Shown in pieces: positions 52,377 through 53,229 of a DNA stretch of 64,000 bases. The stretch lies in the NCBI GenBank assembly GCA_010093815.1, contig ML996567.1; one strand, written 5' to 3'. The first letter of the stretch is position 1. Every line of letters starts with the position of its first letter. The translations under genes and the position numbers were made by a program. The DNA comes from Pseudovirgaria hyperparasitica. Its lineage: Eukaryota. The notes below the pieces were generated by a model that made no database searches, was not told the origin of the DNA, and worked only from the letters and a program-made list of their open reading frames with translations.

Positions 52377-53229
52377 GACCCGAGTACTATGAGATATCCC
52401 ACGATCGACACGACACCTTCCTGCCTCATTTAGGGAAATCCAGAGCATCTGGTAGGCGGAAAGTCCTAGGCTGAAGGTTAAGCCCACCAGCGTCAGAACA
52501 AGGACCCGAGTACGAAGTCCAACGATCGACGAGGCACTCCACTGCCTCTTCAGGTCCCTCAAAGAAGACAGCAGGCTTCCAACTGGACGCTTCGATGGAC
52601 GATCAGAACCTCCACGTCCGAGGAGACCCGAGTACGAGATTCAACGATCTTCACTAGGTTTCTGCCTTTTTTGTCGTACTGGAACACATTCAATCGTCTC
52701 ATTGGAGCAGAGCCGTGAGCTCAAACATGCCGGCTTCTGCGGAGAGCCGAGTACGATGTTCCATGATCGACTTTGGAGGACTGCCCTTTTCGACTGATCG
52801 TCATGATTGGACTTGTCTGGTTGGAGCTTACATAAATATGCAAAATCGTAAGCAGGCCTGTCGAATTCAAATCTCCAGTCTTCTCTCATATTGCTCTGGG
52901 GCTCTTTCGTTGGAGAGTACTGCGAAAGATATGGCTCTATGTATCGCCTTAGGCGGGCCTTGATAGCCCTGAAATGTTTGTTTCTAGCCGGTAGATTGTC
53001 CATTCTCATCTGAGGCATCGCATTACACTCTTGATTTTCTGGTCTTCCAAATCCACTTTTTTGAAAGACCTGCGTATGCTCTACGAAATTCACGACTACC
53101 TGGCGGTTCCGTCGGTTCTAGCAATTTCCGAGTATCAGGTTGGAAATATGGCAGTCCCAGGTAGACTCGTCTCTGGGCGGACCCGCGTACCGGTGAGATG
53201 TTTGACGATCTACACAAGAATTCTTGCCT
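52377..53229. repeat. Interspaced array of a conserved tripartite motif (GACCCGAGTAC..ACGATC..CTGCCT); 5 clear and 1-2 degenerate copies; period about 113-126 bp
   Basis: Copies start at 52377, 52503, 52625, 52744 and 53180. Degenerate copies at 53067 and about 52910. Confidence 0.82.

Follow-up and report, generated by a model that had tools for sequence, protein, structure and literature searches.

A stretch of 64,000 nucleotides (nt) from the fungus Pseudovirgaria hyperparasitica (GenBank assembly GCA_010093815.1, contig ML996567.1), referred to here as the window, carries five copies of a three-block sequence module in the interval between two convergent genes. The module consists of the 11-mer GACCCGAGTAC, followed by AYGATC and then by YTGCC with pyrimidines, and its copies are found within positions 52370–53238 of the + strand. 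This is a real, statistically solid, transcribed and non-coding five-copy motif array, and it matches no known family. The conserved cores lie amid unrelated spacers and may, tentatively, be docking sites for a sequence-specific protein.

The 11-mer GACCCGAGTAC is found without change at 52377, 52503 and 52625, and with one mismatch at 52744 and 53180. These positions had been given in a preliminary description of the DNA and are borne out by a mismatch scan. In all five copies a semi-conserved GA..T.C segment of 8, 13 or 14 nt separates the 11-mer from AYGATC, which is ACGATC in four copies and ATGATC in copy 4. After a further 12–14 nt of variable sequence there follows CTGCCT, CTGCCC or TTGCCT with a pyrimidine-rich run. 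The order and spacing of these blocks (8–14 nt and then 12–14 nt), also noted at the outset, are seen in every copy. About 7 nt upstream of the cores (CTGCGSAG) are common to the copies as well and form part of the profile described below. Core copy 1 (52370–52435) reads CTGCGCAG-ACCCGAGTAC, 13 nt, ACGATC, 14 nt and CTGCCT with a pyrimidine-rich tail (nhmmer E 1.3e-13; pattern match at 52384–52425). Copy 2 (52496–52556) has the exact 11-mer, 8 nt, ACGATC, 14 nt and CTGCCT (E 3.5e-13; pattern 52510–52546), and copy 3 (52618–52676) has the exact 11-mer, 8 nt, ACGATC, 12 nt and CTGCCT followed by T6 (E 1.7e-14; pattern 52632–52666). Copy 4 (52737–52795) begins its blocks with GAGCCGAGTAC, followed by 8 nt, ATGATC, 12 nt and CTGCCC (E 5.4e-14; pattern 52751–52785). 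The detached copy 5 (53173–53238) has GACCCGCGTAC, 14 nt, ACGATC, 13 nt and TTGCCT (E 4.4e-13; pattern 53187–53228). All are on the + strand. Cores 1–4 are arranged head to tail with spacings of 126, 122 and 119 nt, which are correct as originally reported, and core 5 follows core 4 at a distance of 436 nt. The core copies diverge by 15–30% from each other and also differ by indels.

The pattern GTAC-N6-16-AYGATC-N10-16-YTGCC has five matches in the window, all of them in the array and all on the + strand. In 100 shuffles the mean number of matches is 0.03, and no shuffle reaches five. A profile of the ~60-nt core, searched with nhmmer, recovers the five copies with E values from 1.7e-14 to 4.4e-13; the next match in the window has an E value of 0.25. 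When two mismatches are allowed, the 11-mer GACCCGAGTAC by itself has 18 occurrences in the window against a shuffle mean of 13.4, i.e. there is no excess. Thus, the signal resides in the cluster and not in the word.

When the profile search is confined to the 1449-nt intergenic stretch and run at E ≤ 1000, the five copies and one 11-nt fragment from the + strand are all that it yields; no core copies are found on the − strand. Degenerate copies had been proposed at about 52910 and at 53067, and neither has a profile match in this search on either strand. Both positions lie in the 377-nt gap between copies 4 and 5 (52796–53172), which shows no profile match on either strand at this threshold. 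Two other candidates seen by eye, one near 52200 that could be an upstream copy and one at about 52880–52903 that would be partial and inverted, are without profile support. Tandem Repeats Finder, run with a minimum score of 30, misses the array. A perfect 8-bp inverted repeat, GGACTGCC (52778–52785) and GGCAGTCC (53150–53157), brackets the gap between cores 4 and 5; about ten such 8-bp pairs are expected by chance in 1.2 kb, and the pair is at chance level.

Cores and spacers differ sharply in pairwise alignments. In global alignments compared with shuffles, eight of the ten core pairs are significant at p ≤ 0.002, and the other two have p values of 0.014 and 0.052. The three unique spacers between cores 1 and 4, of ~60 nt each (52436–52495, 52557–52617 and 52677–52736 on the + strand), show no pairwise similarity beyond that of shuffles. 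When spacers of ~60–70 nt are aligned globally, none of the ten pairs reaches p < 0.05, and local alignment of the seven non-core segments gives no pair in 21 at p ≤ 0.01 and two at 0.05–0.06. Both kinds of alignment uphold the layout first described, that of a conserved core with unrelated spacers. What recurs in the array is the core and not the whole unit. As the cores are alike and the spacers are not, whole-unit duplication with uniform neutral decay is excluded. Two options are left: either the cores are held by selection, or the core alone was copied and then drifted. Spacers compared with the rest of the window have no match longer than 13 nt (E at least 1). Conservation is also uneven inside the core: the best block of 11 columns has two deviations in 55 cells, compared with 0.243 per cell core-wide (column-permutation p 0.002), in an alignment anchored on the conserved words, which somewhat inflates the blockiness.

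At the RNA level, the data consist of contigs from two sequencing runs on one sample in one study, and their origin in RNA is inferred from splicing. The contigs skip 50321>50528 and 51608>51730 (GT..AG), as well as 53728>53782 and 53867>53928 (CT..AC, which is GT..AG on the minus strand). The skipped segments are exactly the four introns of the two genes that flank the array, a transporter gene of the MFS family to the left and a Vps51-like gene to the right, and there are no other letters. Because four GT..AG introns are skipped, the contigs stem from spliced RNA. One contig per run (4244 and 4132 nt) spans the region from the 5′ part of the MFS gene to the 5′ end of the Vps51-like gene, and 51730–53728 is in one piece in both runs, with no other letters, no gaps and no joint. 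The 1429-nt interval from stop codon to stop codon (51952–53380) is thereby covered without a joint, and so the array is present in RNA and is unspliced in the assembled form, with the proviso that rare isoforms may be missing from contigs. Beyond the Vps51-like gene, the divergent promoter region (54317–54468 in run X1) is uncovered, which argues against DNA carry-over. Transcription, named in the preliminary description as a means of checking the array, is therefore seen in the spliced-RNA-derived contigs of both runs.

Open reading frames that run from stop to stop across the array encode 113 amino acids (aa) on the + strand and 149 and 158 aa on the − strand. When codon usage is scored as log-odds after training on 11 long coding frames from the window, the training frames score from 0.12 to 0.26 and the held-out last exon of the Vps51-like gene scores 0.16; array frames score from −0.07 to +0.06. 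From one unit to the next, the frame in which the core is read changes. Pfam searches with six local frames give no family at E ≤ 0.01 (best E 0.076), and a database search with the 113-aa + strand frame shows no protein homologue. With the 158-aa frame, a word-indexed search of 5.8 billion proteins has a single match, a 178-aa ‘hypothetical protein’ of P. hyperparasitica that is identical over 78% of the query and that is, judged by this identity, the public gene model of this very locus. When mapped to the window, the model is on the minus strand, with an exon at 53018–52646, a predicted intron at 52645–52590 and a second exon at 52589–52426. The predicted intron, 56 nt in length (GTTGAA..GAAG), is absent among the joints of the RNA contigs, and the model passes through cores 4, 3 and 2 in a frame that shifts between them. 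The codon score in its frame is 0.058, and a Pfam search with the model is negative at E 0.01. When 1.84 billion representatives are searched exhaustively with phmmer, the model is matched to itself and to one protein at E 1.7e-4. The latter match is taken to be an artefact, in which ten matches of ~26 bits are summed over residues 8–52, outside the cores. Its partner is a 701-aa protein made of near-identical ~61-aa tandem repeats, which resembles a translated satellite. The 178-aa model is probably spurious and prompted by transcript cover. Hence the array is non-coding, as had been proposed, with codon scores near zero and no homologues beyond the public model of the locus itself. It is not unannotated, given the hypothetical protein that a public record assigns to its minus strand. 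Micro-open reading frames ending in Cys-Leu-Ile/Phe/Val, picked out by eye, are rejected because neither their ATG nor their frame is kept from copy to copy.

Known RNA families do not account for the array. An Rfam search of 51900–53500 at E ≤ 10 has only one match, to the mammalian long non-coding RNA (lncRNA) model FTX_1, at 14.4 bits against a gathering score of 50 and with an E value of 9.7. This match lies between cores 4 and 5 and is a chance one. At gathering score there are no Rfam matches, riboswitches included, in the whole window, and ARAGORN finds no transfer RNA (tRNA) or transfer-messenger RNA genes in it. Box C/D small nucleolar RNAs (snoRNAs) have a C box, RUGAUGA, near the 5′ end. 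Neither RTGATGA nor TGATGA is present on either strand of 52200–53400, and one-mismatch versions do not occur at equivalent positions of the units. A combined search of both strands for a C box, a D box (CUGA) 45–130 nt downstream and a terminal stem of at least four pairs gives no candidates. U5 small nuclear RNA (snRNA) is marked by an invariant loop 1 sequence and by an Sm site in a conserved stem-loop; for U5 there is no match at E ≤ 10, and no conserved helix surrounds the YTGCC pyrimidine run. A word scan shows no T-run or TATA word per unit.

Secondary structure does not set the units apart either. When the five units are folded on both strands and compared with dinucleotide shuffles, none of the ten folds is more stable than expected (z from −0.51 to +0.99). 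RNAalifold, applied to the five cores with 15–20 additional nt, predicts no pairs on the + strand. On the − strand it predicts a hairpin of eight pairs at −2.16 kcal/mol; five of the pairs are invariant, and a change on both sides occurs at one pair in one sequence. Duplex energies between core and spacer, compared with those of shuffled spacers, reach p < 0.05 in one of ten tests (unit 2, + strand, p 0.033). The covarying stems within units that had been suggested are thus at chance level in the duplex tests and are accompanied by no excess fold stability. The readings of the array as structured RNA, as ribozymes or as U5-like RNA fare no better, with no Rfam match, no consensus pairs on the + strand and no excess stability. 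With neither structure nor ribozyme or guide activity in evidence, the array is less exotic than was first thought. The cores all start with an A|GTACGA-like sequence, and TTTAG, TTCAG and TTAAG follow YTGCC in copies 1, 2 and 5, which resembles the ends of introns. Cores as short introns are rejected because there is no joint in 51730–53728, while four nearby introns are skipped.

The two flanking genes are convergent, as previously described. The MFS transporter gene, on the + strand to the left of the array, is identified by a match to Pfam MFS_1 (E 9.3e-32) and ends with a TGA stop codon at 51949–51951. Its introns at 50322–50527 (206 nt) and 51609–51729 (121 nt) are rather long for a fungus, and both are confirmed by joints in the RNA contigs. 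Some RNA contigs of deeper coverage share only 35–39 nt with this gene (50957–50995, within 50819–50995, with three other letters) and then diverge; they are probably transcripts of paralogous transporters that have a conserved GC-rich segment in common. The gene on the right, on the − strand, is small and has a weak match to the Vps51/Exo84 N-terminal family (E 0.0025, below the Pfam cut-off). It begins with an ATG at 54234, has two short introns, at 53729–53781 (53 nt) and 53868–53927 (60 nt), both confirmed by contig joints, and ends with a stop codon at 53381–53383. The 5′ end of its RNA is at ~54314–54316, roughly 80 nt upstream of the ATG. Elsewhere in the window are ordinary fungal housekeeping genes (APC1, aldehyde dehydrogenase, Nrap, SPX-RING, RMI1, an ESCO acetyltransferase and a protein with a fungal-specific transcription factor domain). 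The sole word of TATAAT/TATAAA type in the stop-to-stop interval, found by word scan on the + strand at 52262–52267, is ~110 nt upstream of core 1 and could, speculatively, be a promoter element for a separate + strand transcript. A scan for bacterial promoters and terminators is at chance level; the method is not applicable to a fungus.

Beyond the locus, a metagenome scan with the three-block pattern finds two loci with one match each, in GC-rich or coding-looking DNA and with no array, and these are taken as chance matches. The same pattern has no match in a viral collection. In a literature search with the 11-mer GACCCGAGTAC and its complement, all among the matches listed are taken as unrelated chance occurrences. 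Resemblances to Reb1, Sap1, B-box, Alu/SRP, 25S rRNA, Seb1/Nab3, DSR and DRACH elements do not fit all copies in any case, and are not used here.

The reading that is favoured, at rather less than an even chance, is that the cores serve a sequence-specific protein as linear docking sites, repeated along a long 3′ untranslated region (UTR) or an lncRNA. The array would then be a lineage-restricted non-coding set of a linear module, placed in the transcribed and unspliced interval of two convergent genes. The blocks of the module are most likely read as primary sequence, since the cores are recognizable amid random surroundings, their conservation is blocky and they have no shared fold. The variable spacing between blocks (8, 13 or 14 nt, then 12–14 nt) is what is expected of separate short recognition elements and not of one rigid fold. 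The putative protein might bind on RNA, in a long 3′ UTR, a read-through transcript or a separate lncRNA, or it might bind on DNA. With five sites the array would be a multivalent cis element, and from its position this element would plausibly act on 3′-end formation, on termination, or on transcript stability or localization at the convergent pair. Blocky conservation, variable block spacing, the lack of a shared fold, single orientation and presence in RNA point to selection. The array also shares three properties with repeat-module lncRNAs or multivalent docking elements, in that it is transcribed, non-coding and built on a repeated conserved core.

Several considerations weigh against docking sites. 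There are only five copies, at one locus, in the sequence of one species. Decayed copies may be present in the gap between cores 4 and 5, and if they are, individual copies are dispensable. Core-only copying with neutral drift thereafter would look similar, and the blockiness is subject to the anchoring effect stated above. Regarding the RNA, both runs represent one sample, the contigs carry no information on strand, transcript ends or local level, and a single contig that covers two convergent genes does not prove one transcript.

A serious rival, somewhat unlikely on the present evidence, is that the array is a functionless relic, in which a ~60-nt piece was copied locally several times and has since drifted. 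This could have come about by template switching during repair, for instance, or from an old minisatellite broken up by indels, and transcription would merely reflect read-through of the convergent genes. A relic is consistent with the small copy number, with the single locus that has no other copy in the window, with the divergence and indels between copies and with the gap without a recognizable copy, where copies may have decayed. The absence of structure, family match and coding signal is in keeping with it as well. On the other hand, the spacers have no residual similarity while the cores are alike, which excludes duplication of whole units with uniform decay; the core itself is unevenly conserved; and five core-only copyings in the same orientation at ~120-nt spacing constitute an odd mutational history. 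The array may also be viewed as the remnant of a mobile element, for example a decayed non-autonomous DNA transposon represented by its subterminal transposase-binding repeats, or a solo long terminal repeat that was inserted between the two genes and is represented by an enhancer repeat. An orphan locus whose open frames have no homologues, with several short conserved sites in some 1 kb of non-coding sequence, would suit such a remnant, which is nevertheless improbable: all five copies are direct and none is inverted, there is no second copy in the window, and there are no convincing terminal inverted repeats, only arms of 10–16 nt with 81–90% complementarity.

Small-RNA genes, in a cluster or a polycistronic precursor, provide another explanation, in which the core is a scaffold joined to a unique, guide-like segment of ~60 nt, or is itself the mature RNA. 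The layout of repeat and unique segment in ~120-nt units of single orientation fits this, as does transcription of the region, and fungal snoRNAs are found in clusters and in 3′ UTRs, as stated in excerpts of one study (PMC2780460). The clusters of Neurospora described in these excerpts are in spliced host genes (PMC2780460), whereas no joint is present at this array. The lack of C/D boxes and of candidates with terminal stems, of Rfam and tRNA matches, of a shared fold or excess stability, of T-runs or TATA words per unit and of spacer matches elsewhere in the window makes small RNAs unlikely. More specifically, and very improbably, there could be a eukaryotic guide-type cluster, where each ~120-nt unit yields an RNA with a shared ~60-nt protein-binding scaffold and a ~60-nt unit-specific targeting segment; if true, fungi would have a class of small RNA with no relation to snoRNAs or RNA interference. 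A protein-coding gene, i.e. the 178-aa minus-strand model, or a frameshifted pseudogene of a repeat protein, has equally little probability. The public record carries the model, the minus strand has its open frames of 149 and 158 aa, and the region is transcribed, but the searches return the model itself plus one artefact, nothing for the + frame and no Pfam family, the codon score is about zero, the cores fall in different frames per unit and the 56-nt intron is not among the RNA joints. The least probable group, largely refuted, comprises structured RNA repeats (self-cleaving ribozymes or variants of a U5-like snRNA) and short introns or introner-like elements. Against structured RNA are the lack of an Rfam ribozyme or U5 match, z values within the range of shuffles and no consensus pairs on the + strand. 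All cores do start with GTAC, and three of the five end with a pyrimidine run and YAG; in addition, the sole protein-database match is labelled Dothideomycete, and introner-like elements are reported from Dothideomycetes in the excerpted text of PMC4457414. Yet the array has no joint beside four real introns that are skipped, and the nearly identical copies, in their hundreds and within unrelated genes, that would be expected from these excerpts (PMC4457414) are not present in the window.

Some well-known systems offer partial parallels. The A-repeat of Xist and the units of NORAD consist of short cores on the same strand of a non-coding transcript, with poorly conserved linkers, and are thought to multiply a protein-docking site. 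The array resembles these animal repeat-module lncRNAs in having several conserved cores on one strand amid unrelated linkers. There is no sequence relation, however; the array is fungal, its cores are longer (~60 nt, in three blocks), and its docking sites are putative, whereas Xist and NORAD have known protein partners and cross-species conservation. The minisatellite is similar in its head-to-tail arrangement with a period of 119–126 nt, its single locus and its single orientation. It differs from the array in view of the negative Tandem Repeats Finder result, the unrelated half of each unit and the blocky conservation of the core. Arrays of clustered regularly interspaced short palindromic repeats (CRISPR) are alike in layout only, with repeats that alternate with unique spacers of similar length in one orientation. 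Unlike CRISPR, the present array is in a eukaryotic genome, its repeats are ~70–85% alike with indels of 5–6 nt, it has five copies and one irregular gap, and its spacers match nothing in the sequences compared.

Two fungal systems are closer in origin. In Neurospora crassa, snoRNA clusters are carried by UHG-like host genes that are spliced and have a single snoRNA in each intron, according to excerpts of the published account (PMC2780460). Like the array, the clusters so described (PMC2780460) have several units of ~100 nt that are transcribed, with little coding potential and only short open frames, and are situated between or beside genes. The array differs in having no C/D boxes, terminal stems, Rfam match or splicing of a host transcript, and in what is conserved, which is a paralogous core of 60 nt, in contrast to short boxes that flank divergent guides. 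Introner-like elements, known from Dothideomycetes, have hundreds of near-identical copies inside genes, again as excerpted (PMC4457414). They are from the same fungal class and are likewise short elements that start with GT; three of the five cores end with a pyrimidine run and AG. In contrast to introner-like elements, the array is unspliced, is outside genes, is in tandem and lacks many near-identical copies in the window.

If the array is a relic, it would exemplify a CRISPR-like layout of functionless origin, and a transcribed repeat mistaken by automatic annotation for the gene of a hypothetical protein. Should the cores be docking sites under selection, the locus would be a compact fungal non-coding transcript, or a DNA element at gene ends, that multiplies one module. 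To our knowledge, such a design is well studied in animal lncRNAs and barely documented in filamentous fungi. It would be found here at a convergent gene pair, a place where termination and transcriptional interference are live questions.

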